Positions 37,034 to 53,044 of a stretch of DNA of 63,408 nucleotides are shown here, in pieces (positions within the stretch are counted from its first letter, which is position 1; the number at the start of each line of letters is the position of its first letter). The notes under the pieces were generated by a model, which saw nothing but the letters and a program-made list of their open reading frames with translations, searched no databases and was not told the DNA's origin. The stretch is from Patescibacteria group bacterium UBA3530. GTDB taxonomy: Bacteria; Patescibacteriota; Minisyncoccia; Phycocordibacterales; UBA2100. A program made the translations under genes and the position numbers. The stretch is taken from positions 31,468-94,875 of the forward strand of contig DFOX01000002.1 in the NCBI GenBank assembly GCA_002376945.1, in the 5' to 3' direction.

Positions 37034-37309
37034 TTAGAGTACGTGCGCATACACAAAATAGGACAGTATCGGGAACAGTATAAGCCACCAAGTATAGAAC
37101 CAGCCAAGTGCGAGTATCCATATCAGGAGACTTCGGCGCATATAGAACCAGTCCCTTTCATTTGTATGTGAATCACTTCGCCATATATGGGTGATACTGA
37201 AGCCGGTAACTACCAAAGCGGCTATCTGCGGGAACAGAATGAACACAAGTATCTTCTCCCATAAGGGAGATGCTTCTATTCGCTTCTCGACCCAGTCAAT
37301 AGGTATCAT
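37034..37309 (-). CDS. small membrane protein (3 TM), hypothetical
   Basis: Hydrophobic segments ILVFILFPQIAALVVTGFSI, LLIWILALGWFYTWWLILFPILSYFVY. It is the last gene of a three-gene minus-strand unit with 8-nt spacers. Confidence 0.6.
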   Translation of the reverse strand: MIPIDWVEKRIEASPLWEKILVFILFPQIAALVVTGFSITHIWRSDSHTNERDWFYMRRSLLIWILALGWFYTWWLILFPILSYFVYAHVL

Positions 37310-37317
37310 AGGTACAC

Positions 37318-37704
37318 CTATGACAAGGAATCAATTGATGCCTTGAGCTCTTGTTCCACATCTGTTGCGATGGAGGTAAGTTGCTCGTTTTGAACAAACG
37401 ACATCGCCGCTGAGGGAAGTATTGCGGATACATATATTTCGGAATCTTTCTCGTAAACGATAACGTTGCAGGGAAGAAGAAGACCTATTTCCTTCTCTGC
37501 TTGCAGCGCCTGGTACGCGAAAGTGGGATTGCATGCACCCAAGATGAGGTAATTGTCATAATCAATATCAAGCTTTGCCTTTAGAGTGCTTGTAACATCA
37601 ATCTCGGTGAGCACACCAAACCCTCGTGAGGCAAGCGCTTCTTTAATCCGCTCTGTCGCCTCAGCAAACGACAAAGCTACTTTTTTGGTATATCCGTATT
37701 GCAT
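37318..37704 (-). CDS. DUF302 domain protein
   Basis: FAEATERIKEALASRGFGVLTEIDVTSTLKAKL...YLILGACNPTFAYQAL...EIGLLLPCNVIVYE resembles DUF302. The start is taken at MQYGYTKK (37704), which avoids overlap with the upstream gene. Confidence 0.7.
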   Translation of the reverse strand: MQYGYTKKVALSFAEATERIKEALASRGFGVLTEIDVTSTLKAKLDIDYDNYLILGACNPTFAYQALQAEKEIGLLLPCNVIVYEKDSEIYVSAILPSAAMSFVQNEQLTSIATDVEQELKASIDSLS

Positions 37705-37712
37705 GATGTTAC

Positions 37713-37952
37713 TTATACGAACTTGTTGTATACCCACCCAAAGGCATACGAGAATACAAACCCGATGATTGCCGCCTCAATCATTCCTGCAAGAATCCCG
37801 CCTGCAGATGGAGAGAAGAACATATGCACACCTTGCATTGCCTGCATTGCCCCCGCATAGATACCCATGCCACCAAGTACCCCCAAAAGAAGCATGATAG
37901 CTGCAGATAGTATTGCTCCTGCATAACCAAGAGCCATTGCGTTTAGTTTCAT
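37713..37952 (-). CDS. small 2-3 TM membrane protein, paralogue of 41130..41393
   Basis: Gly/Ala/Met-rich TM protein ending in GFVFSYAFGWVYNKF, compared with ESYAYGWLFGALYAWL in 41130..41393. Confidence 0.6.
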   Translation of the reverse strand: MKLNAMALGYAGAILSAAIMLLLGVLGGMGIYAGAMQAMQGVHMFFSPSAGGILAGMIEAAIIGFVFSYAFGWVYNKFV

Positions 37953-37996
37953 ATTAAAAGTATATTACGTTATTAACATCGGGATAATTTGACTAT

Positions 37997-38013
37997 ATAC
38001 CCCATAGGGGTAT
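37997..38013. promoter_or_regulatory. CsoR-type operator ATACCCC-ATA-GGGGTAT inside the csoR promoter
   Basis: A 7-3-7 perfect inverted repeat of the GC-tract type bound by CsoR-family repressors. It lies in the spacer between TTGACT (37989-37994) and TATTAT (38011-38016). ATG 38025 is 8 nt after the -10. Confidence 0.75.
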
Positions 38014-38024
38014 TATACGTGCAT

Positions 38025-38294
38025 ATGAAAAAAGCAGTCAAGACCCAGGTGGGGAGGAGATTAAAAATAATTTCAGGCCAAATAGCGGGTTTGCAAAAAA
38101 AGGTAGAGAATGAAGAATACTGTATTGATATTATCACACAAACGTCAGCAGTACGGCAGGCACTTTCCGCTATTGAAGACTTGATGCTTGAAAACCACCT
38201 CACCACTCATGTTACTGAACAAATACAGGCCGGACAGCAAAAGAAAGCAGTTGATGAGATTTTATCGGTTTACAAGTTATCAAAGAAAAAATAA
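38025..38294 (+). CDS. csoR: CsoR/RcnR-family metal-sensing repressor
   Basis: RRLKIISGQIAGLQKKVENEEYCIDIITQTSAVRQALSAIEDLMLENHLTTHV has the typical CsoR helix bundle, with the Cys (YCID) and His (ENHLTTH) ligand positions. Confidence 0.85.
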   Translation: MKKAVKTQVGRRLKIISGQIAGLQKKVENEEYCIDIITQTSAVRQALSAIEDLMLENHLTTHVTEQIQAGQQKKAVDEILSVYKLSKKK

Positions 38295-38299
38295 TCACT

Positions 38300-39136
38300 A
38301 TGATGGGAACAAGTGGAATCATTGCATTACTCATAACTGTCGCCGTGCTCATAGCGGGTGGATATTACATCACCACAAGGAATGATGACGCTCATCATTC
38401 CGATACGGCTGTTTCCGGAGAAATATATCCGAGTGCAGTTGTGGAAAAAATTGCAAACAAGGAGGATATAATCATACTTGACGTCAGAACTCCTGAAGAA
38501 TACGAAGAGGTGCATATTGAAAACGCCGTACTGCTACCGGTGCAGGTACTTTCAGCACAAACGCTTGAGGAAGTAGGTATTGGGAACGACATGAAAGACA
38601 AGGAAATAATCGTATACTGTAGAAGCGGTGCTCGAGGACAAACGGCCTATAACATAATGAAGTCTCTCGGCTATACCAATGTTAAAAATATCTCCGGAGG
38701 AATGATTCACTGGGAGGAAGATGGAAACCCGTATACGGAAAGCGGCGCATACCAGGGGGTTGTACCTTCCTCTGAAACCACTACCGTACAATCACCTACA
38801 GCTTCTCCCAAGCTCGTCATGAAAAGTGACTTCTATGACTTTGGGGTCATACCCCAATACGGAGGTGTGGTAGAGCAGACGTTTCCCATTACCAACGACG
38901 GCACCGAAACGCTCATTATCGGAGAAATCACCACTAGTTGTGGATGCACCTCGGCAAACATCAGTCGTTCGAGTTTGGAACCAGGAGAAGAAGCGATACT
39001 TACCGTCTCCTTTGACCCCGATTTTCATGAAGAACCACCGAATGTATTTAAGCGAACCGTATTTATCCCAACCAATGATCCGACCATTCCTGAAAAAGAG
39101 GTTACGATACGTGTGGATATAGAAGAAGGTATTTAG
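38300..39136 (+). CDS. membrane-anchored rhodanese domain fused to a DUF1573-like domain
   Basis: N-terminal TM. Rhodanese region ILDVRTPEEYEEVHIENAVLLP...IIVYCRSGARGQTA (active-site CRSGAR loop). The C-terminal region FYDFGVIPQYGGVVEQTFPITNDGTETLIIGEITTSCGCTSA is DUF1573-like. Confidence 0.8.
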   Translation: MMGTSGIIALLITVAVLIAGGYYITTRNDDAHHSDTAVSGEIYPSAVVEKIANKEDIIILDVRTPEEYEEVHIENAVLLPVQVLSAQTLEEVGIGNDMKDKEIIVYCRSGARGQTAYNIMKSLGYTNVKNISGGMIHWEEDGNPYTESGAYQGVVPSSETTTVQSPTASPKLVMKSDFYDFGVIPQYGGVVEQTFPITNDGTETLIIGEITTSCGCTSANISRSSLEPGEEAILTVSFDPDFHEEPPNVFKRTVFIPTNDPTIPEKEVTIRVDIEEGI

Positions 39137-39153
39137 TATAATAAAAGTAATAT

Positions 39154-39633
39154 ATGACCAAATATATAATCGGATTGGGGTTAGTGATTGCTCTCGGAGT
39201 TCTGTTTGCGGCAGGAGGTTCTCAGAGCGGTAAAAGAGCGACTGAGGTGATTCCGGTCGTTTCCGCGCCACTTGTGGTTGTTGAGGAACCATTTGATTTT
39301 GGAGACATTGATATATTCGGCGGTACCGTTACTACAACGTTCACGTTACAAAATAATGGCACAGAGGATGTTAGTATCGTTGCTGCGGTAACAAGTTGTG
39401 CGTGTACCGAGGGAGAGATTGATGATTTGCAATTCGGTATGCATGAAAGTACGGGCGCACAGGTAGTCGTTCCTGCTGGAGGCACCAAAGAGCTGGTAGC
39501 CACCTTCGATCCCCTGGCACACGGTCCAAATGGTACAGGTAGGGTTACCAGAGAATTGTATCTATCAACGAATTCAACCGTTACACCCGAGGTCAAGGCA
39601 GTGTTTACCGGAAACGTAGTCAAGTATGAGTAG
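39154..39633 (+). CDS. membrane-anchored DUF1573-like protein
   Basis: Signal anchor, then FDFGDIDIFGGTVTTTFTLQNNGTEDVSIVAAVTSCACTEGE, paralogous to the C-terminal half of the preceding protein. Confidence 0.65.
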   Translation: MTKYIIGLGLVIALGVLFAAGGSQSGKRATEVIPVVSAPLVVVEEPFDFGDIDIFGGTVTTTFTLQNNGTEDVSIVAAVTSCACTEGEIDDLQFGMHESTGAQVVVPAGGTKELVATFDPLAHGPNGTGRVTRELYLSTNSTVTPEVKAVFTGNVVKYE

Positions 39634-40648
39634 TGCATTGAAAAAACTCCTGGTTTTTGCAGCGTTCCTGTTGTTTAGTATTTCCCTGATAGGGTTGTTC
39701 TATGTATTCCTCTCGCCTGCAGAAACCGCTAATATAGCTTTCGCCTACGCGGTTGGTTTGACCATGATTGTACTTCCCTGTACGCTGCCGCTTGCGTTTG
39801 TCATTGTGCCACTCGCAATGGGTAAGAATCCAAAAAAAGGACTGATGATGTCGTTGTTCTTTGCGTTGGGGGTGTCGCTTACACTGTCACTTTACGGATT
39901 ATTTATCGCACTCATTGGTAAGTCCATCGGACTTGATCAGGCAATAGGTGACGCTGGTTTGGTGAGTCGTATTTTGTTTATGGTCGGGGGACTGGCGGCA
40001 TTTATTTTCGGACTTTCTGAGTTGCGACTCATCAAATTCAAAATACCAAGCTATAGCGGCTCATATCCACAGTTCATACAAAAGCAAGGAGATTATCTCA
40101 AAGCATTTTTCTTGGGACTCTTCCTCGGCAATGCTGGTGTTGGTTGTCCGAACCCGCTCTTCTATGTGCTTCTTGGCAATATTGCAGTTGTAGGCAGTGC
40201 AGCTACCGGGTGGTGGCTTGGATTTATACATGGTGTGGGTAGGGCGACGCCGCTTCTCTTCTTGGCGATTTTGGGAATTCTGGGAGTCAATGCCGTGAGC
40301 TCGATTGCATCCAAAACCGCAACGGTAACGAAATGGACCGGTATCAGTCTTGTGTTCCTCGGAGCTTTCATTTTCATAAGTGGTGCTTCACATCAATGGT
40401 ATGAGGAAACGGTTGTCCATAAAGGGTGGAATACGATGGTTGAGATAGTGACCGGCGAAGATAGTGGTATAGCAGAGATAGAAGAACACGAAGAAGCGCC
40501 GGGAACACCTGAAGACCATGTGGATGAGCCCGTCGTAGAAGATGATCATGCCGATGCAGGTGACTTGTTACCCGCTCCATGGTCGTGGATTGTATTAATT
40601 GCGATGATAGGAATTCCTCTCATCTGGTATAGAAGCATTAATAAGTAA
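39626..40648 (+). CDS. ccdA: CcdA/DsbD-family transmembrane thiol-disulfide electron transporter
   Basis: Polytopic, with the two family-typical intramembrane Cys-Pro motifs (VLPCTLPL and GVGCPNPLFY). It has an acidic/His-rich insert EEHEEAPGTPEDHVDEPVVEDDHADAGD and a final TM. Confidence 0.75.
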   Translation: MSSALKKLLVFAAFLLFSISLIGLFYVFLSPAETANIAFAYAVGLTMIVLPCTLPLAFVIVPLAMGKNPKKGLMMSLFFALGVSLTLSLYGLFIALIGKSIGLDQAIGDAGLVSRILFMVGGLAAFIFGLSELRLIKFKIPSYSGSYPQFIQKQGDYLKAFFLGLFLGNAGVGCPNPLFYVLLGNIAVVGSAATGWWLGFIHGVGRATPLLFLAILGILGVNAVSSIASKTATVTKWTGISLVFLGAFIFISGASHQWYEETVVHKGWNTMVEIVTGEDSGIAEIEEHEEAPGTPEDHVDEPVVEDDHADAGDLLPAPWSWIVLIAMIGIPLIWYRSINK

Positions 40649-40658
40649 TAAAATACAT

Positions 40659-40916
40659 ATGCACAAAATAATATTTTTAACCATGCCGGGATGTCATTCT
40701 TGTGAAGAAGCGAAGGGGATATTCAGCGAAATTATTCCTGAATTTGAATCGATAGTCAGTGTTGAGGAGGTCGATATGATGAGCGAACAAGGACAAGCGT
40801 TAGTGCAAAAACACAGCGTGTTCGCATCACCAGGAATCATTATTGACGATGAGTTGTTCTCTACCGGAGGAGTTGATAAGAACGCGCTAGTGGAGAGGTT
40901 ACGAGAACTTGAATAA
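40659..40916 (+). CDS. small thioredoxin/glutaredoxin-like protein (CHSC active site)
   Basis: IIFLTMPGCHSCEEAK...ASPGIIIDDELFSTGG; 85 aa, with Thioredoxin_3-like architecture. Confidence 0.7.
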   Translation: MHKIIFLTMPGCHSCEEAKGIFSEIIPEFESIVSVEEVDMMSEQGQALVQKHSVFASPGIIIDDELFSTGGVDKNALVERLRELE

Positions 40917-40918
40917 AG

Positions 40919-41092
40919 ATGAGCAACAAGGCAACAAGCATCTATTTTGCAATTTTTGCAGTGGCGTATGTTGTCTATGTGTTGCAGATAGTAAAACACG
41001 ATATTCATTTCACCAATGCAGTAATACTGACAACTTTCGTAGGACTGGCCGCTTACTACTACATTAAATCTCGTCGAGAGATGACCGATTAA
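40919..41092 (+). CDS. candidate 57-aa 2-TM peptide
   Basis: My hand translation gives MSNKATSIYFAIFAVAYVVYVLQIVKHDIHFTNAVILTTFVGLAAYYYIKSRREMTD. It starts 2 nt after the preceding stop and is below the ORF-track cutoff. Confidence 0.4.
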   Translation: MSNKATSIYFAIFAVAYVVYVLQIVKHDIHFTNAVILTTFVGLAAYYYIKSRREMTD

Positions 41093-41129
41093 TACATTAT
41101 TAGTTTATTACGATAATATATAAAATTGT

Positions 41130-41393
41130 ATGAATCATAGTTTAAAGAAAACAGGACATATAGTAGGTGTTTTATTTGTTGCGTTTTTCGCACTCTGCAT
41201 GTTCTGGGGGTTGTTGTTAGTCGACCCTGCCTTAAAAGAATTGCATAGAAACTTGCTGCTTATCGCCTTTCCAGGATTTAGCTTTACGGCAATAGGAATA
41301 GTGATCGGAGCCGCGGAATCATATGCGTACGGATGGTTATTCGGAGCATTGTATGCGTGGTTGTGCAAAGTAACTTGCGCACAAGGAAAATAG
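41130..41393 (+). CDS. small membrane protein, paralogue of 37713..37952
   Basis: Two or three TM helices and a conserved C-terminal AESYAYGWLFGALYAWL. It lies directly upstream (1-nt spacer) of the Cu ATPase. Confidence 0.6.
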   Translation: MNHSLKKTGHIVGVLFVAFFALCMFWGLLLVDPALKELHRNLLLIAFPGFSFTAIGIVIGAAESYAYGWLFGALYAWLCKVTCAQGK

Positions 41394-41394
41394 T

Positions 41395-43455
41395 ATGAGC
41401 CAAGACCACGATGCGCATGTACATGACGAAGAATATTTCTGCAGTGTGTGTAAGGTAACGACCAAAGAAAAACATGCGCATGGTGGTATGGCGGCAATGT
41501 CACATGGTTCGGCAACGATGTTTCTTCGACGTTTCTGGATCGTCACGGTGTTGTTAATCCCTCTACTATTCACCAATGAATTTGTTACGGGAGTATTGGG
41601 TGTTGGTCTTTTGCCCTACAACACGTTTATCGGATTTGGCATATCGACCGTTATATTCGGATTTTCTCTGATTTTTTTCAGACACGCATGGCACGAAATA
41701 CGTTCGAAAAGCTACGGGATGATGACATTGGTAAGTATTGCGGTTGGATCGGGATATCTGTTTTCAGTCGCTTCGACATTTGTACCGTCACTTGAGGTGG
41801 CGTTTTACATGGAGATTTCAACCCTTATATGGGTGCTGCTCTTTGGACATTACTTGGAGGCCAAATCAACATCGGCTGCTGGCAATGCGTTACAGGAGGT
41901 GGCCAAGTTGCTACCTAAGAAGGCACACAAGGTGGTTGATGGAGTAGAAAGTGAAGTCGCGATAGCTGATTTACAGGAAGGAGACGTGGTTGTGGTAAAA
42001 CCGGGAGAGAAAGTTCCGGCAGACGGTGTAGTTGATGCGGGAGTTGCAAATGTCAACGAATCGCTCATATCAGGTGAATCCAAACCTGTGCAAAAAGAGG
42101 TCGGCGATACGGTAGTTGCGGGAGCGATTTGTATTGATGGAGCACTTACCATTGTGCTCTCGCGCGTAGGAGAACACTCTACTATAGGGCAGATTAAAAA
42201 ATTGATTTCTGACGCACAGTCTACCAAGCCACACTCGCAAAAGGTTGCAGACAAAGCTTCCGCTGTACTTACCTTTGTCGCTGCGGTAACGGCGTTACTC
42301 ACCATACTCATCTGGTCGGTATTTCTTGGACAACCCTTCGTTTTTGCGATAACGCTTGCCATTACCGTTTTAGTGATTGCGTGCCCGCATGCATTGGGGC
42401 TTGCTATTCCAACGGTTACAACGATTAGTACTTCGCTTGCAGTGAAAAATGGCGTGTTTATAAAAGACCTTTCCAAAATTGAGGTGATCAGAAAGGCGGA
42501 CTATGTCGTATTTGACAAAACTGGAACACTGACCAAAGGAGAATTTGGGGTGAGTAACATTCACACCACTACCGATGACTATACACCAGACGAGATTTTG
42601 GCCATTGCAGCTTCTCTTGAACAACAGTCGTCGCACATAATCGGACAGTCTATTGTCGCACATGCGCAGCACAGTGAAGTAGATATGAAAAACCCCGAAG
42701 CGTTTAAGAATATAGCGGGAAAAGGAGTTTCGGGCATGCTGGCAGGAGCGTCCTACTACGTGGGCAACATAACACTCATGAAGGAAAACGTAGCGGTGAC
42801 TGAGCGCATTGAGGAGAAAATCAAGAATCTTTCTTCAGGCGGAAATACACTTGCCATAGTTGCCAATCAACGAGCAGTTATCGGAATTATTACACTGTCT
42901 GATGAAATAAAGGAAGAGTCATATGCGGCGATACAAGATATACACAACCTTGGTGTTAAGGTTGCGATGCTTACAGGAGATAATGACGGTGTGGCGAAAG
43001 GGGTAGCCGACGCACTGGAAATCGACACCTACTTCGCACAAGTCCTCCCTGAGGATAAATATACGCACATTCAAAATCTACAAAAAGACGGATCGGTGGT
43101 TCTCATGATTGGTGATGGGGTAAATGATGCTCCCGCACTGACGCAAGCTGATGCGGGAATTGCTGTTGGAGCTGGGACAGATGTTGCGGTTGAGTCAGGG
43201 GATGTTGTGTTAATGAGCAATAATCCTCAAGACGTGCGAAGACTTATCGTTTTGTCCAAAAAGGTGTATTCGAAAATGGTCCAGAATCTTGTATGGGCAC
43301 TGGGATACAACGTGGTTGCAATACCAGCCGCAGCAGGAGCGTTTGCCGCATGGGGATTCTTTCTTCGACCGGAGGTCGCTGCCTTGCTCATGGCACTATC
43401 CACCGTGATTGTGGTTGCGAATGCAATGTTATTAAAAAGAATTAATTTACAGTAA
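41395..43455 (+). CDS. copB: copper-translocating P1B-type ATPase (CPH motif, CopB-like)
   Basis: His-rich N-terminus (DHDAHVHDEE...KEKHAHGG), TGES-type actuator (LISGESKPV), TM6 CPHALGLAIP, DKTGTLT and GDGVNDAPAL. Confidence 0.93.
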   Translation: MSQDHDAHVHDEEYFCSVCKVTTKEKHAHGGMAAMSHGSATMFLRRFWIVTVLLIPLLFTNEFVTGVLGVGLLPYNTFIGFGISTVIFGFSLIFFRHAWHEIRSKSYGMMTLVSIAVGSGYLFSVASTFVPSLEVAFYMEISTLIWVLLFGHYLEAKSTSAAGNALQEVAKLLPKKAHKVVDGVESEVAIADLQEGDVVVVKPGEKVPADGVVDAGVANVNESLISGESKPVQKEVGDTVVAGAICIDGALTIVLSRVGEHSTIGQIKKLISDAQSTKPHSQKVADKASAVLTFVAAVTALLTILIWSVFLGQPFVFAITLAITVLVIACPHALGLAIPTVTTISTSLAVKNGVFIKDLSKIEVIRKADYVVFDKTGTLTKGEFGVSNIHTTTDDYTPDEILAIAASLEQQSSHIIGQSIVAHAQHSEVDMKNPEAFKNIAGKGVSGMLAGASYYVGNITLMKENVAVTERIEEKIKNLSSGGNTLAIVANQRAVIGIITLSDEIKEESYAAIQDIHNLGVKVAMLTGDNDGVAKGVADALEIDTYFAQVLPEDKYTHIQNLQKDGSVVLMIGDGVNDAPALTQADAGIAVGAGTDVAVESGDVVLMSNNPQDVRRLIVLSKKVYSKMVQNLVWALGYNVVAIPAAAGAFAAWGFFLRPEVAALLMALSTVIVVANAMLLKRINLQ

Positions 43456-43456
43456 T

Positions 43457-43810
43457 ATGAAAAAGTTTTTCGGAGCATTAATAGTAGGGTTACTTCTAGT
43501 CTCTCCAAGTGTGTCGCTTGCTGATGTGGGGCGTGATCATGGAATGGCTACACCAGAAGAGCATCAAGAAATGGAGGATTTGATGGTGAAAATGATGACG
43601 AATGAAATGAACGAAAAAGAGGCACGAAAAATGATCACACTGATGCAAAACATAGATGGTGGCATGATGGGCATGATGGGCGGTGGTGTACAACACCGTA
43701 AAGGAGTGCTCAATGATTACAACATGATGGGAACGTCTCTTGGCCTTATATGGCTCATTGCAGGAGTGCTACTCATCGCGTGGCTGGCGAGAGAACTTCG
43801 TAAGAAATAA
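43457..43810 (+). CDS. Met/His-rich exported protein with C-terminal TM anchor
   Basis: Signal peptide MKKFFGALIVGLLLVSPSVSLA, then HGMATPEEHQEMEDLMVKMMTNEMNE...GGMMGMMGGG...YNMMG, a C-terminal TM and RELRKK. Confidence 0.65.
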   Translation: MKKFFGALIVGLLLVSPSVSLADVGRDHGMATPEEHQEMEDLMVKMMTNEMNEKEARKMITLMQNIDGGMMGMMGGGVQHRKGVLNDYNMMGTSLGLIWLIAGVLLIAWLARELRKK

Positions 43811-43812
43811 GT

Positions 43813-45279
43813 ATGTTTGCCAAGTACAAAGATGCCATACGCCGAGTAACGGGCGATTACCTCTACACAATCATTGCGGTGAGTTTCGCACTAAACTTAC
43901 TTGCACTCGATTATATATTGTTGAGTCAGGCCACTACATTTCGCATAATGGCTGCACAAAACACCCTGTTTTACAACGCGTCCACGATACTTTTAAGCAT
44001 TATCACAGCGATACTCTTTGGTGTATCAAGTGCAATGGTGGTGTATATACTCAAGCGACGAAAAAGTGTCAAGGAATCGGCACCGAGTACATTTTTCGGA
44101 ACGGTCTTTGCTGCGGTTGCAAGCGGTTGTCCGGTATGTGGAGCGTGGCTACTCCCGCTTCTGGGAATTGCAGGGTCTTTGGCGGCCTTTCCGTTGCAAG
44201 GGCTTGAAATTCGGCTATTGGCAATTGGCCTTTTGATTTTCTCAATTGCACAATCAACCAATATAATATTGGGGTTGTGTAAGGATTCGAAGAAGCATGT
44301 GCAGACTTCGGTGATCGTGATTGTGGCTTTCATTGTCGCACTCTTGTTACTCCCAAATCTTCCTTCTCAGTTTAAAGTGAGGTTTCAGTTGTCAGGTGTC
44401 AGTGTACCCACCGTTACTGCAGGTGCTGACGTGAATGCCATCTATGATCAGGTCAATCCACGAGAAGGGTACGCCATATCTGCGCGCTATGGAAATATCG
44501 GGTATCAACTCGTACAAGCGGGCGTGATTGATTTTGATCGGTTCAGCTTGTTGTACGAGCGATCGGGTACTCCACTGACAAAGGCGCAACTCAAAATCTT
44601 TAGTGAAGAGGGATCAGATGAGAATATTCTCATCAATAGAGAGAATTCATATTTCCTCCTCAACCTTTTCTGGGCATTTGGTCTCGGGAACGATAACCCC
44701 ATATTGACTGAAGGGCAGATTACACAGTATGGAAATGCAAGCATTGGAGATTTTGCCTCCACTGGCGGTTGGACTATTGCTACAAAACCACTTGAAGCGT
44801 ACTACTCAAAATTACCCATGGCGCCACTTAACGATGAACAACAGGCGAGACTCTTGGCGGTTGCTGAAAACACGTATAGACCGTGCTGTGGAAATTCAAC
44901 CGCTTTTCCTGATTGTAATCACGGCATGGCACTACTTGGTGTTTTGGAGTTGATGGCGTACAACAACGCTACGGAAGAAGAAATGTTCGAAGCAGCAAAG
45001 TACTTTAGTGCGTTTTGGTTCCCACAACAAGCAGTGGATGTGGCAACTTTGTTTATGGTAACTGAGGGAAAGGCCTTTAAAGACATTGACGGAAGCATGT
45101 TCTTAAGCGAACAATTTTTCTCAGGACGTGGTTGGAGCCAGGTGCGCGGATGGCTTGAGAGTAATGTGCAAGGAGGTGTCGAATCACAAACACCAAACGG
45201 CGGCGGTTGCGGCGTGGAAAGCGGTGCTCCCGTGCAAAAGCAAGTCATCCCGCAAGGCGGCGGCGGTTGCGGAGTCTAA
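43813..45279 (+). CDS. membrane protein with intramembrane GCPVCG motif and large Cys-motif ectodomain (unknown family)
   Basis: The N-terminal ~190 aa are polytopic (AAVASGCPVCGAWLLPLLGIAG). The C-terminal ~300 aa are soluble, with YRPCCGNSTAFPDCNHGMA. It ends in a duplicated GGGCGV...GGGGCGV. Confidence 0.7.
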   Translation: MFAKYKDAIRRVTGDYLYTIIAVSFALNLLALDYILLSQATTFRIMAAQNTLFYNASTILLSIITAILFGVSSAMVVYILKRRKSVKESAPSTFFGTVFAAVASGCPVCGAWLLPLLGIAGSLAAFPLQGLEIRLLAIGLLIFSIAQSTNIILGLCKDSKKHVQTSVIVIVAFIVALLLLPNLPSQFKVRFQLSGVSVPTVTAGADVNAIYDQVNPREGYAISARYGNIGYQLVQAGVIDFDRFSLLYERSGTPLTKAQLKIFSEEGSDENILINRENSYFLLNLFWAFGLGNDNPILTEGQITQYGNASIGDFASTGGWTIATKPLEAYYSKLPMAPLNDEQQARLLAVAENTYRPCCGNSTAFPDCNHGMALLGVLELMAYNNATEEEMFEAAKYFSAFWFPQQAVDVATLFMVTEGKAFKDIDGSMFLSEQFFSGRGWSQVRGWLESNVQGGVESQTPNGGGCGVESGAPVQKQVIPQGGGGCGV

Positions 45280-45293
45280 CATCAACGTAACAA

Positions 45294-45323
45294 AAGCACT
45301 CCTGGGGTTTGTGGGTGCTTTTT
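45294..45323 (+). terminator. rho-independent terminator ending the csoR-copB operon
   Basis: aagcactc...gggtgctt stem (8 bp including G-U) followed by ttt. Confidence 0.65.
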
Positions 45324-45420
45324 AAATGTAAATTACGCTTTATATTTATCCCCTGTGCAAGATACTGCAAATTCAGCAGGTATGTCATAATTGAAGGAAG
45401 AGGTTACTAGTACATACACT

Positions 45421-46134
45421 ATGAATATGAATGTATCAAAAGGAAATTATGCAATACCAGCTTCTATTGTGATTGCGGGAGCTTTTATCGCACTTGCCAT
45501 ATTCTTCACTGCAGGCAAGAATGCAGTGCAACCGGCACCATCGCAGCCACTGGCAGTCGATACCACTGACCGGATAAATCCGGTGACCGCAGAGGATCAC
45601 ATTCGAGGAAGTATAGACGCGCAGGTTTTTGTGGTGGAGTATTCAGATTTCGAGTGCCCGTTTTGTAAGCGATTTCACCCCACGATGAAGCAAGTGATGG
45701 AAGCGTACGATGCAGACGAAGTTGCGTGGGTATATCGACAATTCCCGCTCGACTCACTTCACCCAGTTAAAGCAAGACGGGAGGCAATCACTTCAGAATG
45801 TGTTGCTGAGCTGGGAGGAAATGATGCTTTTTGGCAATTTACCGACAGGTTCTTTGAGGTCACTCCGTCTAATAATCAAACTGATTTGGATGTAGTGTTA
45901 CCTGAGATTATTGCCGAGATCGGACTTTCGCAAGAAGCGGTGGACGAGTGTGTTGCAAGTGGTAGGTATGACCAACATGTGCAGGATGATGTCGATAATG
46001 CATTTGCAACCGGTGGACAGGGAACGCCCTGGAGCGTGATAATCGGGAAAAATGGAGAAACCTTCCCCCTCTCCGGTGCTCAACCATATACTTCTGTGAC
46101 ACAACTTATCGATATTGCACTCAAGGATAAGTAG
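45421..46134 (+). CDS. DsbA/BdbD-family thiol:disulfide oxidoreductase (CPFC), membrane-anchored
   Basis: N-terminal anchor, then VVEYSDFECPFCKRFHP, and a GTPW cis-Pro-loop-like segment (GGQGTPWSVI). The start is taken at MNMNVSK (45421); ORF-track start 45391 is TTG. Confidence 0.85.
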   Translation: MNMNVSKGNYAIPASIVIAGAFIALAIFFTAGKNAVQPAPSQPLAVDTTDRINPVTAEDHIRGSIDAQVFVVEYSDFECPFCKRFHPTMKQVMEAYDADEVAWVYRQFPLDSLHPVKARREAITSECVAELGGNDAFWQFTDRFFEVTPSNNQTDLDVVLPEIIAEIGLSQEAVDECVASGRYDQHVQDDVDNAFATGGQGTPWSVIIGKNGETFPLSGAQPYTSVTQLIDIALKDK

Positions 46135-46136
46135 GT

Positions 46137-46673
46137 ATGGGCGCACTGCAGAAAGTTTTCGTTCAATGGAAGTATGTGGCTCTTTCTGCCATGGTAGCGA
46201 TTGCGATATTTGCATTTTCTGTATGGCTTCCCAATTGGAAGTTGATTTACACCGTCTTCACTGCACCCTCTGTGAGCTTCTTTGAAGCAATCAGTGTAGT
46301 GCTCGGGTTGTTTTTATCGATTGGCACCAACTTCACCATCGTATCTGCTTCCTATACCATAGTGATTGCCATTTTGTTTGGTGTGAATGTATCACTCCTG
46401 ACCTACTACATTACGCGAAAGAGGGGTGCGTTTGGTACAGGGGGCGTGCTCGGTGCGGGAGGTTTGGTAAGTGGTGTCTTCGGGGTTGGTTGTGCATCGT
46501 GTGGAACATTTATACTCACGTCACTCCTTACCTTTGTCGGTGTCGGAGGACTACTCACCATGCTGCCATTGAAAGGGGAGGAGTTTGGTATATTGGGAGT
46601 TGCACTTATTGGCTACGCGACCTATTGGACAATGAGGAAAATAGAGGAACCGTTATTAGTTTGTGATGTATAA
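46137..46673 (+). CDS. membrane protein with intramembrane GCASCG motif, paralogue of the N-terminal domain of 43813..45279
   Basis: ILFGVNVSLLTYYITRKRG...GVGCASCGTFILTSLLTFVGVGGLLTMLPLKGEE aligns by eye with ILFGVSSAMVVYILKRRKS...ASGCPVCGAWLLPLLGIAGSLAAFPLQGLE. Confidence 0.65.
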   Translation: MGALQKVFVQWKYVALSAMVAIAIFAFSVWLPNWKLIYTVFTAPSVSFFEAISVVLGLFLSIGTNFTIVSASYTIVIAILFGVNVSLLTYYITRKRGAFGTGGVLGAGGLVSGVFGVGCASCGTFILTSLLTFVGVGGLLTMLPLKGEEFGILGVALIGYATYWTMRKIEEPLLVCDV

Positions 46674-47067
46674 AAGTATGAGTAATAGCGTACAACTTAC
46701 CATAGCATCAGTGATACTCGCAGGAGGACTCATTGTTTCAGCCATCGTGCTTACATCAGGAGGACAGAGCACTAAAAAATTCAATGTGGTTATGCAGAAT
46801 AATAGGTACAACCCGTCTGAAATTGTTGTGTCAGTTGGTGATCGGGTTATTATCAATTTTGAAAATAGAGACCCGGTCAGTCACGGTATTGCAATACCGC
46901 AATTCAATGCTACAGTTCCAAATGGACATGTTCCCGCAGGAGGTTCGGCGCGCATGGAGTTTATCGCAGATAGAGCTATCGATACTGATGCGGCAGTGTG
47001 TGGAGGGCCAAACCCGACCGACAAGACTGATGAACATGGAGAAGAGTTTATAGTACGAGTTAGATAA
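46663..47067 (+). CDS. membrane-anchored cupredoxin-like domain protein
   Basis: TM anchor, then NRYNPSEIVVSVGDRVIINFENRDPVSHGIAIPQF...GGSARMEF, a cupredoxin-like beta-sandwich pattern. The alternative start 46678 avoids the 11-nt overlap. Confidence 0.55.
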   Translation: MMYKSMSNSVQLTIASVILAGGLIVSAIVLTSGGQSTKKFNVVMQNNRYNPSEIVVSVGDRVIINFENRDPVSHGIAIPQFNATVPNGHVPAGGSARMEFIADRAIDTDAAVCGGPNPTDKTDEHGEEFIVRVR

Positions 47068-47073
47068 TCAAGT

Positions 47074-47835
47074 ATGAAAAAGAGTATCATCATTGCTTTA
47101 ATTATTATAGGAGGAATTGCATTCTATGCATTCTCTGCCGGTAGCGCAGATCAGGACGATTTTGTGGTTACTGCGGAAACTGATGGTAGTGCAGTTCTCG
47201 TGGAGAGTGTAACTCTAGATGCCCCAGGTTTTGTGGTCATACGAGAAGTAATCAATGATCGACCGGGACAGATAGTGGAGGTGAGCGACCTGCTTCCGGC
47301 GGGACGTAATACCAATGTTACCATTGGTTTAGGAGCCCCGTCCGGGATTGAGGGCATTGACATCGGTGGTGGTTTTCCACTCTTTACCAGTCTCGCTGCT
47401 GTGGTGTATTACGATGATGGAGACGGAGGATTCAATTCTCTGACGGATACGGTGGCGTATGTTAACGGTAATGTACTCGCTGAAGATTTGGGTACCGGTG
47501 AACGTGCACAAGAATCGGCGGTCGTTCCAAATGTACAAGCTGAATCTCTTGAGGGAGAAGTTGCGGTAACGGTTCGGTATACTGATCAGGGTTTCTTGCC
47601 AAAGAGAGTGGAGATACAAGTGGGAGATACGGTGAAGTTTATCAACGAAAGTAGTAGGCCTATGTGGGTTGCGTCTGATGTGCATCCTGCACACACCATT
47701 CTTCCTACCTTTGATCAATTTACCACCTCAGCATACGGGGAGAGTTACTTCTACACATTTCAAGAGGCCGGCGAGTGGCGATACCATGATCACGTAAACG
47801 CAAACGAACTTGGTACGGTCATGGTGAGTGAATAA
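47074..47835 (+). CDS. exported protein with C-terminal Cys-less cupredoxin-like domain
   Basis: Signal anchor. The C-terminus FLPKRVEIQVGDTVKFINESSRPMWVASDVHPAH...GEWRYHDHVNANELGTVMV has His-rich potential ligands but no Cys. Confidence 0.6.
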   Translation: MKKSIIIALIIIGGIAFYAFSAGSADQDDFVVTAETDGSAVLVESVTLDAPGFVVIREVINDRPGQIVEVSDLLPAGRNTNVTIGLGAPSGIEGIDIGGGFPLFTSLAAVVYYDDGDGGFNSLTDTVAYVNGNVLAEDLGTGERAQESAVVPNVQAESLEGEVAVTVRYTDQGFLPKRVEIQVGDTVKFINESSRPMWVASDVHPAHTILPTFDQFTTSAYGESYFYTFQEAGEWRYHDHVNANELGTVMVSE

Positions 47836-47861
47836 ATACATTACAATGTAAACGATATACT

Positions 47862-48386
47862 ATGAATGATAATCAAGAATTAAGTGCAAAGGAGGTGTAC
47901 GACTTAGAGAAAAAACACAAAGAGGAAGCAAAAAGAAAAGAGCATGTATCGCAAAAAAGATCTCGCAACAAAATGAAAATGGGGAAGTATGTAGCGTATA
48001 CGGTAATCACTCTCGGTGTGCTTTGGGGAATTATATGGTTGCTATCGTTGGTGCCCAAACTGCCTCCGATATCGGCGGAGAACCACTCAGAGGATAGTCC
48101 GGTGGCGCATATTTTAACGACACCAATACCAGACAGGATGCAGCGACATATGCTCGAACACGCAGATGGTATCGGGGCACCGGGTGTCATCATTCAATAT
48201 AACTGTGACGATTACGAGTGTGATGCTGATATGGTAGAGAAGCTCGTTGGACTTGTTGGAGAATATCCTAACAACGTATACCTCGCTCCAAATACCTATG
48301 CAGGAAAAATTATTCTCACCAAATTGGGAAAGCGGGAGGTACTTGATGAGTTCAATGAGGAGACCATTCGCAATTTCATTAGATAG
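47862..48386 (+). CDS. membrane-anchored DUF3105-like protein
   Basis: Basic N-terminus, a TM, then HILTTPIPDRMQRHMLEHADGIGAPGVIIQYNCDDYEC...VYLAPNTY, resembling DUF3105 (H..LEHG.V...Y). Confidence 0.5.
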   Translation: MNDNQELSAKEVYDLEKKHKEEAKRKEHVSQKRSRNKMKMGKYVAYTVITLGVLWGIIWLLSLVPKLPPISAENHSEDSPVAHILTTPIPDRMQRHMLEHADGIGAPGVIIQYNCDDYECDADMVEKLVGLVGEYPNNVYLAPNTYAGKIILTKLGKREVLDEFNEETIRNFIR

Positions 48387-48390
48387 TCTG

Positions 48391-48420
48391 CTAAACGGCT
48401 CAGTCCATTGAGCCGTTTAG
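48391..48420. terminator. bidirectional terminator hairpin
   Basis: ctaaacggctca-gtccat-tgagccgtttag, a 12-bp perfect stem. It overlaps the stop of the minus-strand gene 48417..48803. Confidence 0.7.
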
Positions 48421-48929: not shown

Positions 48930-49442
48930 TTACTTCTGGGCACGATGTTTCAATGCCAGCCTGTTTTTGAGAATCAGAAAAATAATACTTATGATCAAAG
49001 CAATGCCTATAGGGGGTGCGATATATAGCACCAGGTTGGCAATGTTGAAAAGAACAGACGCTCCAGTGTTCAAGAACTTAAATAGCCACGGTACGAGATA
49101 GGCATAAGAGACATACATTAAGCCCAGCCAGATCACCGCCTTGATCAGGTTATAGAGTTCCCACATACCGAAGGCTTTAACCACGATGTCGTGCAAGACT
49201 TTATAAAAGCGGAGCACATACAGCAATAAACCTAGTGTTCCAAACGTGAATGCGCTGTAAAATGCACGGATAAAGATACTCGGTTCTGACAAAGGTGCTA
49301 TCTGTTGCCACTGAAATTTCATACCAAGAGCAAAGTGCCAGAGTAATAGCACGAGCGCGAGGATTGCATAGGTCATCCCGCTAGTCGCTATTTCTTTAGC
49401 GTGTTTTAACAATACTCTTTTGTGCCAACTGTCTGTTCTCAT
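48930..49442 (-). CDS. 4-TM membrane protein (unknown family), second gene of a two-gene cassette
   Basis: Four long hydrophobic helices. The start overlaps the stop of the upstream gene by 4 nt (ATGA). Confidence 0.6.
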   Translation of the reverse strand: MRTDSWHKRVLLKHAKEIATSGMTYAILALVLLLWHFALGMKFQWQQIAPLSEPSIFIRAFYSAFTFGTLGLLLYVLRFYKVLHDIVVKAFGMWELYNLIKAVIWLGLMYVSYAYLVPWLFKFLNTGASVLFNIANLVLYIAPPIGIALIISIIFLILKNRLALKHRAQK

Positions 49443-50413: not shown

Positions 50414-50421
50414 AGTTAAAA

Positions 50422-50447: not shown

Positions 50448-50463
50448 AAATAGCAACATGATG

Positions 50464-51885: not shown

Positions 51886-51886
51886 T

Positions 51887-53041: not shown

Positions 53042-53044
53042 ACC

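Follow-up and report, generated by a model that had tools for sequence, protein, structure and literature searches.

The window analysed is a stretch of 63,408 nucleotides from a Parcubacteria-type Patescibacterium, an ultrasmall member of the CPR. Positions 37034-48386 contain 18 tightly packed open reading frames in three units. The earlier note had described about 17 genes in three units; the three units are retained and the number of reading frames is now 18. Every reading frame in its list was found at the same coordinates, and the family assignments are backed by HMMs. Within the units, the gaps between genes range from -11 to +37 nt, and the only long gap, of 111 nt, is located 5' of dsbA. 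Both hairpins reported previously are present and fold at 45292-45322 and 48391-48420. The first (plus strand, -12.3 kcal/mol, z = -2.0) has a U-run and could plausibly act as the intrinsic terminator of unit 2. The second, assigned to neither strand, has a perfect 12-bp stem (-19.5 kcal/mol, z = -5.2) and lies between convergent genes; a clear U-tract was not found in it. The HMM searches gave no family match for the products of 37034-37309, 40919-41092, 43457-43810, 43813-45279 and 46137-46673.

The regulatory gene csoR (38025-38294, plus strand) codes for a repressor of the CsoR/RcnR family (PF02583, 2.5e-22). Its most likely start is the ATG at 38025, and a longer reading frame (37989-38294) passes through the candidate operator. 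The best PDB matches of the product are the Cu-sensing CsoRs 4m1p, 2hh7, 4adz and 3aai. Residue alignments give the ligand set Cys/His/His, which is like that of the T. thermophilus protein 3aai but differs from the canonical Cys/His/Cys, and the metal specificity of the regulator is therefore uncertain. The divergent promoter region with the candidate CsoR operator occupies 37989-38041 and is assigned to neither strand. The promoter scan predicts a rightward promoter with TTGACT at 37989-37994 and TATTAT at 38011-38016 (10/12 matches), and a leftward one with TTGACT at 38041-38036 and TATAAT at 38017-38012 (11/12 matches). A perfect 17-bp palindrome, ATACCCCATAGGGGTAT, is located at 37997-38013 inside these back-to-back promoters, within the spacer of the rightward one and abutting or overlapping the -10 box of the leftward one. 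The same design, TTGAC-N-ATACCCCC..GGGGTAT-AAT, is also found 5' of csoR in the homologous loci L008, L087 and L088. Judged by its sequence, the palindrome looks like a canonical CsoR box, and its position inside both promoters suggests that a single CsoR-type repressor probably governs units 1 and 2. Its exact sequence occurs only once in the window and no operator was found there for the dsbA unit, which is probably not under this control. The description of the whole island as CsoR-headed is thus appropriate for units 1 and 2 but not for the dsbA unit, which in the closest syntenic genome (L088) lies upstream of the operator.

Unit 1 is read leftward (minus strand) and begins with a DUF5676-like protein of two transmembrane segments (37713-37952; weak full-length match to PF18926, 0.006), whose homologue in L090 (1.3e-28) is likewise divergently placed. 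It is followed by a DUF302 protein (37318-37704, in a reading frame extending to 37737; PF03625, 6e-24), most likely starting with the ATG of M12 at 37704. Topology prediction finds no transmembrane segment in this protein and places it in the cytoplasm. Its homologues adjoin csoR or the ATPase gene in L087, L088, L090 and L092 (1e-41 to 1e-52), as DUF5676 genes do in L002, L005 and L088. The last member is a putative reading frame of 91 residues for a predicted membrane protein with two hydrophobic segments (37034-37309), which has no homologue in any of the loci fetched.

In unit 2, on the plus strand, csoR is followed by a membrane-anchored fusion of rhodanese and DUF1573 domains (38300-39136; 4e-19 and 2.4e-19, respectively), with the rhodanese loop CRSGARG and the DUF1573 motif SCGCT. 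The fused architecture is kept in all 120 of the 120 matches listed, at 55-67% identity, and the carriers named among these matches are Kaiser-, Nomura- and Pacebacteria. The fusion lies directly 3' of csoR, or one gene further, in L090, L091 and L092, and in these loci it precedes orthologues of the next gene. The latter codes for a secreted or anchored DUF1573 protein with the CxC motif SCACT (39154-39633; PF07610, 3.8e-10). Selenoprotein forms of DUF1573 carry UGC at the CxC motif (PMC9312934), and this motif is therefore taken as a redox site. The CcdA-type membrane electron transporter (39626-40648; DsbD_TM/CcdA PF02683, 9.1e-8) scores 32.1 bits, above the cut-off of 27.1 bits, and has Cys52, Cys174, an acidic and His-rich tail and an additional C-terminal transmembrane segment. 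Its cysteines align with those of a CcdA-like family of other loci, the profile of which matches the CcdA structure 5vkv (9.9e-14). The thioredoxin/glutaredoxin-like protein of 85 residues (40659-40916; Thioredoxin_3 2.9e-7, TIGR00411 of the MJ0307 family 1e-9) contains CHSC and, by topology prediction, has no signal, anchor or hydrophobic segment. It is therefore placed in the cytoplasm, which contradicts the expectation that all redox partners face outward, and it is likely the electron donor to CcdA. Counterparts of the CcdA and thioredoxin types of the window were not found in the loci fetched, nor was a homologue of the putative hydrophobic 57-residue reading frame that follows (40919-41092).

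The small transmembrane protein noted previously on the 5' side of the ATPase is now recognized as a second DUF5676-like protein (41130-41393; weak full-length match to PF18926) with two transmembrane segments and a C-terminal CKVTC. Its gene directly precedes that of the ATPase here and in L088 (6e-31), and a further orthologue is found in L092 (9e-36). The predicted Cu-exporting P-type ATPase (41395-43455; TIGR01511, 3.5e-164, 547.6 bits against a cut-off of 397 bits) is of the CopB type (P1B-3-like, CPH). It has the membrane CPH motif and a His-rich N-terminus with CSVC, the HMA domain is absent, and the motifs ACPHALGLA, GYNVVAIP and MALST are read from the sequence. In the PDB comparison it scores 432 bits with A. 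fulgidus CopA, 263 with ZntA and 240 with CadA, and the ATP-binding domain is closer to CopB than to CopA. This ranking groups the ATPase with copper pumps and not with the non-copper subfamilies, in agreement with the earlier note. The adjacent Met-rich extracytoplasmic protein (43457-43810) has a signal peptide and a C-terminal transmembrane anchor. A protein of the same build lies beside csoR in L092 (weak match, 0.004), and in L090 a small Met/Cys/His-rich protein comes after the ATPase.

The last gene of unit 2 codes for a protein of 488 residues, here called X (43813-45279), with a domain of five transmembrane segments and an ectodomain of about 290 residues. Topology prediction places GCPVCG within the membrane and Cys156 on the cytoplasmic side. 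The ectodomain is rich in Cys, His and Met, contains the invariant motif RPCC-N-T-F-DCNHGMA, and ends in a duplicated GGGCGV tail with Cys466 and Cys486; the GGxCGV tail is near-universal in the family. Its predicted structure is confident, and no structural match was found in the PDB. At least 595 species genomes encode protein X. Of 84 loci compared, 46 have a P1B ATPase within 10 kb of X, and the same loci contain CcdA-like (37), Cupredoxin_1 (30), CsoR (19-24), DsbA (15), DUF5676 (14) and DUF3105 (11-13) proteins around it. DUF1573 lies within three genes of X in 28 loci, the motif [ST][ST]CxCT is kept in 32 of 35 DUF1573 neighbours of X, and the exact order DUF1573-CcdA-X is found in 18 of 79 loci, its central member being a true CcdA by the match to 5vkv. 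A multicopper oxidase is located beside X in L086, and DUF411 in L001, L005 and L087.

Unit 3, also on the plus strand, begins with a membrane-anchored DsbA-like oxidoreductase (45391-46134; Thioredoxin_4 3.1e-19, DSBA 2.4e-14) with CPFC and a second Cys pair. The next gene, g15, codes for a GCASCG protein of 178 residues (46137-46673), which has no relative in Pfam, NCBIfam or the PDB and is a stand-alone copy of the membrane domain of X (BLASTP E = 5e-9; hhalign probability 99.6%, E = 1.1e-23). All three invariant cysteines, the intramembrane C119 and C122 and the C-terminal C176 on the cytoplasmic side, are aligned between the two. A DsbA-like (CPFC) gene lies immediately 5' of g15 in 49 of 56 metagenome loci. 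Among 87 genes scanned 3' of g15 in 51 loci, 20 code for Cupredoxin_1 proteins, 11 for DUF7282 proteins and five for a true DsbB in the same cluster. Within 5 kb of the dsbA-g15 pair, csoR is found in only 5 of 56 loci and the ATPase in 12 of 56. This rarity, together with the lack of an operator in the window, means that the copper link of this module may be loose. The next product is an anchored cupredoxin-like protein (46663-47067; Cupredoxin_1, 5.7e-7) with candidate ligands His74, Cys113 and His125 and a weak match to nitrosocyanin; its orthologue in L088 (2.1e-66) keeps the position. It is followed by a secreted protein with DUF7282 and a cupredoxin-like domain (47074-47835; DUF7282 2.3e-10, cupredoxin match weak), which in the plastocyanin alignment has a gap at the type-1 Cys ligand; its orthologues are in L088 (2.6e-78) and L090 (1.4e-49). 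The unit ends with an anchored DUF3105-like protein (47862-48386), whose PF11303 score of 18.9 bits is below the 25-bit cut-off; it contains HMLEH (HxxEH) and a C-x4-C pair. A close homologue is found in L002, and true DUF3105 proteins (82-91 bits) hold the equivalent position after g15 in L097 and L121.

Conservation of the gene neighbourhood extends through Patescibacteria and to lineages outside them, and its recurrence in many independent genomes points to more than a chance juxtaposition. All three Parcubacteria loci sampled contain csoR-rhodanese/DUF1573-DUF1573 together with divergently placed DUF302/DUF5676 and an ATPase gene. The closest synteny is that of L088, with the order dsbA-g15-cupredoxin-DUF7282/cupredoxin-rhodanese-csoR-DUF302-DUF5676-copB. 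A second CsoR-like gene with rhodanese and Lactamase_B adjoins the island in this locus. The pair dsbA-g15 is located within copper islands of L002, L088, L090 and L091, and very distant lineages again have DUF1573, CcdA and X together with Cu ATPases.

From these sequence comparisons, the locus is probably a chromosomal copper-defence cluster of 11 kb, a copper-stress island in which units 1 and 2, probably under CsoR, bring the CopB-type pump together with thiol proteins and to which a dsbA module is fused. Cytoplasmic Cu(I) would release CsoR and switch on the leftward unit (DUF5676, DUF302 and the 91-residue protein) and the rightward unit (csoR, rhodanese/DUF1573, DUF1573, ccdA, trx, the small membrane proteins, copB, the Met-rich protein and X). 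Copper exported by the ATPase would be met outside by the Met-rich protein, the DUF1573 CxC proteins and the X ectodomain with its Cys-tipped C-terminal arm. Electrons may pass from the cytoplasmic thioredoxin through CcdA and keep the outer cysteines of the DUF1573 proteins and X reduced. These thiols could bind or pass on Cu(I), reverse wrong disulfides catalysed by copper, or both, and the anchored rhodanese may contribute sulfane-sulfur or thiol-exchange chemistry. Disulfide repair is thus one possible role, and the handling of Cu(I), the transfer of sulfur and the maturation of cupredoxins are possible to the same degree. The genes for DsbA, g15, the two cupredoxin-like proteins and the DUF3105-like protein form a module of their own, which is widely conserved in Patescibacteria and has here been fused onto the island. 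In it the CPFC protein would partner g15, a new CxxC membrane protein with four transmembrane segments. Our best guess, based on the conserved Cys on the cytoplasmic side and the co-occurrence with true DsbB, is that g15 is a DsbD-like device supplying reductant, in which case the module would serve copper proteins at the surface; the direction in which electrons would move through g15 and X is read only from cysteine positions and the positive-inside count. The earlier comparison with the Scs system is valid as an analogy but not as membership: the island has the CcdA core without an ScsB-type DsbD, has no anchored TlpA-like ScsD, and its DsbA-like protein fits DsbA, MdbA and BdbD structures better than ScsC.

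The same genes could serve the biogenesis of cuproproteins instead of detoxification. The ATPase would then provide metal for surface cupredoxins and multicopper oxidases, with the DsbA-like protein, g15, CcdA, DUF1573 and X as Sco/TlpA-type thiol reductases and copper chaperones. Some P1B ATPases do function in cuproenzyme assembly, many loci have cupredoxin-like genes 3' of dsbA-g15, and multicopper oxidases adjoin X or DsbA in L086, L087, L090 and L091. However, operons that combine CsoR repression with a CopB-type pump typically confer resistance, and the type-1 Cys is missing from one of the two cupredoxin-like proteins. Respiratory cuproenzymes are also mostly absent from Patescibacteria (PMC7507113), and we consider this explanation unlikely. 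Slightly less probable still is that X and g15 are not electron relays but transporters of a thiophilic metal, Cu(I), Ag(I) or Hg(II). Their intramembrane GCxxCG and single invariant cytoplasmic-side Cys, aligned between the two, resemble the layout of MerC, MerT and MerF, which hand mercury from a CxxC within the membrane to a cytoplasmic-side Cys, and the composition of the X ectodomain would suit metal binding. Against this, neither protein has sequence kinship to any solved or Pfam family, MerA and MerR are absent nearby, and the almost constant pairing of g15 with a DsbA-like oxidoreductase points to thiol-disulfide chemistry. Copper import would sit badly with a role of the island in resistance, but CopCD offers a precedent.

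It is improbable that the island is a reactive-sulfur (persulfide or sulfane sulfur) system with a CstR-like sensor of the CsoR family, with the rhodanese, DUF302 and the Cys-tipped arm of X as sulfur carriers and the copper pump as a passenger. The rhodanese keeps an intact CRxGxR loop, the GGxCGV-COOH tail of X is like the GGCGG carrier arm of SoxY, DUF302 is present in sox clusters (PMC5037610), and the second regulator and its neighbours in L088 would fit such a system. However, the regulator retains His ligands and best matches Cu-CsoRs, and the constant partners are the operator and the ATPase. X occurs far more often with the ATPase, cupredoxin, DUF411 and multicopper oxidase than with sulfur enzymes, and the HMM searches found no persulfide dioxygenase or SQR in the island. 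We give least credence to the view that the redox genes are housekeeping genes of envelope oxidative folding, placed beside a standard csoR-copB operon with no link to copper. The usual separation of dsbA-g15 from csoR and the ATPase, and the terminator-like hairpin and missing operator 5' of dsbA, would agree with it. But DUF1573, CcdA and X belong to the CsoR-headed unit, lying 3' of csoR and 5' of the terminator, and accompany Cu ATPases in distant lineages; dsbA-g15 precedes cupredoxin-like genes and enters copper islands.

The copper-stress explanation is thus preferred. The view that DUF1573 and its companions stand outside the described copper systems fits the literature searched, in which only four papers mention DUF1573, one DUF3105 and none DUF5676, and in which no link of these families to copper was found. 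The island would combine a CsoR/Cop copper operon with several conserved, uncharacterised partner families. In this ultrasmall bacterium a copper pump appears to be joined to cysteine-based envelope proteins, several of which belong to widespread uncharacterised families.

The copper island at 37034-48386 contains 18 open reading frames arranged in three units. The leftward unit 1, on the minus strand, encodes a DUF5676-like protein with two transmembrane (TM) segments (37713-37952), a DUF302 protein (PF03625, 6e-24) and a putative membrane protein of 91 residues. The rightward unit 2 opens with a gene of the CsoR family (PF02583, 2.5e-22), followed by an anchored rhodanese-DUF1573 fusion, a second DUF1573 protein, CcdA (DsbD_TM), an 85-residue thioredoxin of the MJ0307 type, a 57-residue ORF, a second DUF5676-like protein, a P1B ATPase (TIGR01511, 3.5e-164), a Met-rich protein and, at its end, the 488-residue GCPVCG membrane protein designated here as X (43813-45279). 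Unit 3 is also read rightward and consists of a DsbA-like gene, the 178-residue GCASCG protein g15 (46137-46673), two cupredoxin-like proteins and a weak match to DUF3105. The intergenic gaps inside the units range from -11 to +37 nt, and a gap of 111 nt containing a hairpin separates unit 2 from unit 3. The folding energies of the two island hairpins are -12.3 and -19.5 kcal/mol. By predicted topology, CsoR, DUF302 and the small thioredoxin are cytoplasmic, while the rhodanese fusion, DUF1573, the DsbA-like protein, both cupredoxin-like proteins, the DUF3105-like protein, the Met-rich protein and the ectodomain of X face outward.

The genes rpoB, rpoC, dnaG, dnaE, smc and that of RNase R are present elsewhere in the window, and the island is therefore taken to be chromosomal. 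Its GC content is not distinct from the rest of the window, with no GC shift at the island, and no recombinase was found in the window. Just to the right of the island (49000-58000) the GC content drops to 0.39-0.41 from approximately 0.45; two ORFs at 48930-50449 on the minus strand are without a Pfam match. Scans of the full 63-kb window for tRNA genes and Rfam families gave no tRNA gene and no family at gathering score.

The regulator scores 79.5 bits against PF02583 (cut-off 22.8). Its best PDB matches are copper CsoRs, and FrmR and InrS match it more poorly. Alignment with the solved CsoRs gives a ligand set of Cys-His-His, compared with Cys-His-Cys in the CsoRs of M. tuberculosis and Geobacillus; the residue equivalent to the second Cys (C65 in M. 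tuberculosis) is His, the same substitution as in the T. thermophilus protein (PDB code 3AAI). Copper sensing by such a regulator is plausible. The most likely start of csoR is the ATG at 38025. The segment ATACCCCATAGGGGTAT (37997-38013) is an exact palindrome with a single occurrence in the window. In the rightward promoter it occupies the spacer between TTGACT and TATTAT, and in the leftward promoter, an 11/12 match, it abuts the TATAAT box, so that one bound repressor would block both. The same design is found upstream of csoR in three of the loci fetched from other genomes and metagenomes around homologues of island proteins (L008, L087 and L088), where TTGACx is followed by ATACCCCC..GGGGTAT leading into the -10 box. 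The palindrome is a candidate operator conserved in these three related loci. Allowing up to three mismatches, no further CsoR box was found before dsbA or elsewhere in the window, except for a chance-level site at 5526.

The ATPase scores 547.6 bits against TIGR01511 (cut-off 397). Among the pumps of the PDB the best scores are those of AfCopA and LpCopA (432 and 383 bits), followed by ZntA and CadA (263 and 240 bits); when the ATP-binding domain is compared alone, AfCopB (218.6 bits) exceeds AfCopA (188.5 bits). The earlier note had stated that its copper reading would fall if the pump grouped with a non-copper P1B subfamily, and it is the copper pumps that score highest. The characteristic motifs are ACPHALGLA, GYNVVAIP and MALST, and the N-terminus is His-rich (MSQDHDAHVHDEE...KHAHGG) with a CSVC motif; no HMA domain was found in the protein. 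By these signatures the ATPase is a predicted copper exporter of CopB type (P1B-3-like). The His-rich stretch and CSVC of its N-terminus (41395-41520) could be a metal-binding site. Judged from sequence, the island has a copper-type repressor gene preceded by a conserved candidate operator within a divergent promoter, together with a pump of the copper clade.

This arrangement can be compared with the csoR-copZ-copA operons of Gram-positives and Thermus (3AAI). These share with the island a repressor of the CsoR family, a promoter that contains a GC-rich palindromic operator, and a P1B pump in the operon, and Thermus CsoR also has the C-H-H ligand variant. However, the island has no CopZ or HMA chaperone, its pump is of the CPH/CopB type with a His-rich N-terminus, about nine additional envelope genes are present, and a single operator serves two divergent promoters. 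The island is a member of the csoR-cop kind of operon in a C-H-H/CopB variant. What is new here is the presence of several uncharacterised, strongly conserved partners on this known kind of operon.

The CcdA protein scores 32.1 bits (cut-off 27.1), and its residues Cys52 and Cys174 align with the paired cysteines of the CcdA-like family, one in each half of the membrane core. Its acidic, His-rich tail (residues ~260-340, 40400-40648; EIEEHEEAPGTPEDHVDEPVVEDDHADAGD), which is followed by an extra TM segment, could bind metal. The rhodanese domain (PF00581, 4e-19) has a loop of the catalytic type, CRSGARG, and with this intact Cys loop it is a predicted sulfurtransferase. The rhodanese-DUF1573 fusion has 523 matches at 90% clustering; the 120 matches listed all have the same fused architecture at 55-67% identity, and the named ones belong to Kaiser-, Nomura- and Pacebacteria. 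The two DUF1573 domains score 69.6 and 40.1 bits (cut-off 26.1) and contain the motifs SCGCT and SCACT. The CxC motif is retained in 32 of 35 DUF1573 neighbours of X. In DUF1573 selenoproteins the CxC position carries selenocysteine (UGC; PMC9312934), which argues that it is a redox site. The 85-residue thioredoxin, the only small thioredoxin in the island, has no hydrophobic segment; it would therefore be cytoplasmic, in a position to pass electrons to CcdA rather than to work outside. CcdA adjoins CxC proteins that are extracytoplasmic by prediction.

A two-Cys CcdA beside a probable extracytoplasmic client, with cytoplasmic thioredoxin as the electron source, is also found in the CcdA-ResA/StoA pathways of Gram-positives (T. 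thermophilus CcdA, PDB code 5VKV). However, the clients in the island are Ig-like DUF1573 CxC proteins, the rhodanese fusion and X, not thioredoxin-fold proteins of the ResA type. There is no cytochrome c context, and the CcdA of the window differs in its acidic/His-rich tail. The island had previously been described as Scs-like. The ScsABCD proteins of Salmonella, Proteus and Caulobacter (PMC10907172, PMC5524982, PMC8900818, PMC3322552) indeed resemble it in having copper-linked envelope thiol oxidoreductases, among them a DsbA-fold CxxC protein, and a membrane device that could import cytoplasmic electrons, as well as in the possible binding of Cu(I) by reduced cysteines. The similarity of logic is retained, but membership in the Scs family is not. 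Compared with ScsB, the island protein has a DsbD_TM core only (residues 37-215), with no thioredoxin or Ig-like flanking domains, and there is no anchored TlpA-like thioredoxin equivalent to ScsD. The DsbA-like protein (CPFC, DsbA fold) matches ScsC over ~60 residues only (6e-7 to 2e-4), more weakly than it matches 4n30, MdbA and BdbD. Its partner throughout is an unrelated CxxC protein with four TM segments, and the host is a monoderm-like CPR cell.

The protein X is predicted to have five hydrophobic segments, and the counts of Lys and Arg fit a topology with the N-terminus inside and the ectodomain outside. The invariant residues are C106 and C109 in the middle of the membrane, the motif R356-P-C-C-x-N-x-T-x-F-x-D-C-N-H-G-M-A, and C466; a further Cys, C156, located on the cytoplasmic side, is nearly invariant. 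No Pfam or NCBIfam match was obtained for X, and the profile search of PDB sequences was empty. The model of the ectodomain has a pLDDT of 86 and a pTM of 0.86. In Foldseek searches of the PDB the best E values were 0.72 (whole protein) and 0.51 (ectodomain by itself), and no TM-score exceeded 0.24. The periplasmic domain of CcmH was considered as a relative and rejected, as the short local match (E = 4.5) is not significant. The search for homologues gave more than 3665 matches at 90% clustering, forming 483 clusters at 50% identity, and among the scanned species genomes of GTDB at least 595, most of them Patescibacteria and Chloroflexota, contain a relative. Short forms with one TM segment and the ectodomain are common. 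Many contigs with typical CPR gene content are labelled 'uncultured Gammaproteobacteria' or 'Alphaproteobacteria' (for example L011, L016, L020 and L033), and these labels look unreliable.

The C-terminus of X, GG[GS]CGV-COOH, is shared by 41 of the 42 members that were aligned and by about 70 of the 85 loci L001-L085. In the clade of the window this tail motif is doubled at a distance of ~20 residues (Cys466 and Cys486; residues 453-488, 45169-45279), and the tail is predicted to be disordered (pLDDT <50). A Gly-flanked Cys at the extreme C-terminus of an extracytoplasmic protein is also a feature of SoxY with its GGCGG arm (PMC6067878, PMC5336275). However, the folds are unrelated, the arm of X is joined in cis to a domain bearing its own CC...CNHGM motif, and the context of X is copper genes while that of SoxY is Sox enzymes. 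The tail resembles the SoxY arm by analogy, with no common family implied.

The neighbourhood of X was compared in 84 loci, many of them cut short by contig ends. Domain-specific HMM seeds were used for the neighbour counts; iterated HMMs merge the membrane domain of X with g15. A P1B ATPase lies within 10 kb of X in 46 of these loci. This proximity appears far above expectation by a rough estimate, which is not a formal random-gene control, because a 20-kb window is ~2% of a genome of ~1 Mb. A CcdA-like protein is found near X in 37 loci, a response regulator in 31, Cupredoxin_1 in 30, DUF1573 within three genes in 28, CsoR in 19-24, DsbA in 15, DUF5676 in 14 and DUF3105 in 11-13. Of 79 loci, 18 show precisely the gene order DUF1573-CcdA-X; its middle gene is without a Pfam match, and its profile matches the CcdA structure 5VKV (9.9e-14). 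X adjoins a multicopper oxidase in L086 and DUF411 in L001, L005 and L087. The fetched loci contain no homologues of the 91-residue ORF, the 57-residue ORF, the thioredoxin or the CcdA of the window type.

The three sampled Parcubacteria loci with the rhodanese-DUF1573 fusion (L090-L092), selected solely by the length of their contigs, all contain csoR, rhodanese/DUF1573, DUF1573 and the ATPase. Divergent DUF302 and a DUF5676-like gene are present in two of the three, DsbA-g15 with a multicopper oxidase in one, and a short X in one. The closest overall synteny is found in L088, the chromosome of 'Patescibacteria group bacterium UBA2163', with the order dsbA-g15-cupredoxin-DUF7282/cupredoxin-rhodanese-[operator]-csoR-DUF302-DUF5676-copB. 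Sampling in three ways, from X, from the rhodanese-DUF1573 fusion and from g15, therefore indicates that the window merges three recurring modules, recognised by gene content: csoR/DUF302/DUF5676/copB, DUF1573/CcdA/X, and dsbA/g15/cupredoxins/DUF3105.

The copper island of L088 is immediately followed (13403-14534) by another gene that weakly matches the CsoR family, a rhodanese and Lactamase_B, a combination reminiscent of the CstR/cst persulfide system. In L090 (13058-14353) and L091 (1-7222) the copper islands are flanked by serine recombinase genes, the latter island also adjoining terminase-like, ParB-methyltransferase and CD-NTase genes; in some Parcubacteria, mobile or prophage-like elements may carry the island. 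In loci of the Microgenomates type (L039, L048, L057, L066, L076, L077 and others), a response regulator and a histidine kinase are encoded just after X; among all 84 loci they lie within three genes of X in 19 and 16, respectively. This suggests two-component control in the Microgenomates-type loci, instead of or besides CsoR.

The membrane domain of X and g15 are aligned by hhalign with a probability of 99.6% (E = 1.1e-23) and with all three invariant cysteines in register. No Pfam or NCBIfam match was found for g15, and the PDB profile search gave nothing better than E = 0.15. A gene for a CPFC DsbA-like protein is located directly upstream of g15 in 49 of 56 evaluable metagenome loci (88%). 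The pairs of DsbA with DsbB, VKOR or MauE (bioRxiv 10.64898/2026.03.05.709764) are comparable in that a DsbA-like gene directly adjoins the gene of a small protein with four TM segments and a Cys pair of catalytic appearance. However, g15 has no sequence similarity to those partners, its CxxC is inside the membrane and not in an outward loop, its third invariant Cys faces the cytoplasm, and true DsbB is found in the same clusters. A relationship to CcdA is ruled out (hhalign probability 0.7%), and so is one to DsbB/VKOR, by the absence of sequence or profile similarity and by the true DsbB adjoining g15 in some loci. The idea that g15 simply substitutes for DsbB in quinone-poor CPR is weakened by the DsbB of the g15 clusters; since the two co-occur, g15 is not merely a replacement.

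One or two genes downstream of g15 were scanned in 51 loci. The 87 proteins include 20 Cupredoxin_1, 11 DUF7282, 10 second DsbA proteins of the CEAC type, eight true DUF3105 and five true DsbB. DsbB (PF02600, CVLC) and a second, CEAC DsbA-like gene directly follow dsbA(CPFC)-g15 at L105:5500-5985, L109:2581-3024 and L133:6248-6808, and some Patescibacteria therefore encode two pairs of DsbA-like protein and membrane partner side by side. In the window, the first cupredoxin-like protein (46663-47067) has candidate His/Cys/His copper ligands in a weak alignment, and in the second (47074-47835) the type-1 Cys is missing and the position of the Met ligand is occupied by Glu. The protein at 47862-48386 scores 18.9 bits against DUF3105, below the cut-off of 25 bits; true DUF3105 proteins occupy the same place after g15 in other loci. 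A conserved family of ~130-145 residues without a Pfam match, absent from the window, is located upstream of dsbA-g15, or after csoR or the ATPase (L088:5749-6180, L089:5782-6192, L090:7537-7932, L091:7537-7950, and 23 metagenome loci such as L109 and L124). Its layout is a TM segment, C..H..C..EHIxxWQ, a second TM segment and the end ...EAFSxGILxPKVF.

That this is a CsoR-controlled copper island we regard as highly probable. The fuller explanation, in which the controlled island has envelope thiols fed by CcdA and a separate DsbA-like/g15 pair, is favoured with reasonable but lesser confidence, and the details of the electron flow are tentative. Copper would derepress units 1 and 2, and CopB would export Cu(I). 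Electrons passing from thioredoxin to CcdA would keep the thiols of DUF1573 and X reduced, and these might bind or pass on Cu(I), repair disulfides made by copper, or both. The rhodanese could supply sulfur or thiol exchange. The DsbA-like protein and g15 would form a separate redox pair serving copper proteins at the surface; the Cys of g15 on the cytoplasmic side and the occurrence of DsbB beside g15 favour a reductive, DsbD-like role for this protein. Other explanations have been considered. The purpose of the island could be the maturation of cuproproteins, or it could be a sulfur-stress system; X and g15 could transport metal; or the genes could be merely juxtaposed. As far as gene order can tell, X, DUF1573, DUF5676, DUF302 and g15 have a conserved co-location with copper genes. 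Mercury resistance is rejected as the purpose, since no MerA or MerR was found and the ATPase falls in the copper clade. In the literature searched, DUF1573 is mentioned in four papers, DUF3105 in one and DUF5676 in none, and no connection of these families with copper was found among those read or listed; CsoR is absent from the top-ranked papers on CPR, and copper-related terms are absent from the two of them searched for such terms.

It is conceivable, though rather unlikely, that the GCxxCG 4-TM module and the ectodomain of X are two unrecognised machines. The module, which exists on its own as g15 and as a part of X, could represent a membrane thiol relay of a third kind, with no relationship to either DsbD/CcdA or DsbB/VKOR/MauE. 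It could act as the dedicated partner of the CPFC DsbA-like protein across Patescibacteria, using the intramembrane CxxC and the cytoplasm-side Cys. The ectodomain could be a new enzyme or chaperone handling copper or sulfur. Its SoxY-like, Gly-flanked Cys arm could, by analogy, shuttle Cu(I) or sulfane sulfur into the invariant CC...C-N-H-G-M pocket, and this pocket could receive electrons from CcdA via the DUF1573 CxC proteins.

The Patescibacteria make up a large share of bacterial diversity, and their metal handling and the folding of their surface proteins are almost unstudied. The patescibacterial copper defence described here consists of a standard CsoR/P1B core and a conserved set of uncharacterised Cys proteins. 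Among the hypotheses are a new partner of DsbA-like proteins in the membrane, which would bear on the missing disulfide pathways, and a new fold with a carrier-arm Cys tied to copper; DUF1573, DUF5676, DUF302 and DUF3105 would for the first time be placed in a functional context. Should the accessory genes turn out to be ordinary, the analysis would still leave a copper regulon of CPR bacteria cleanly annotated together with its operator.
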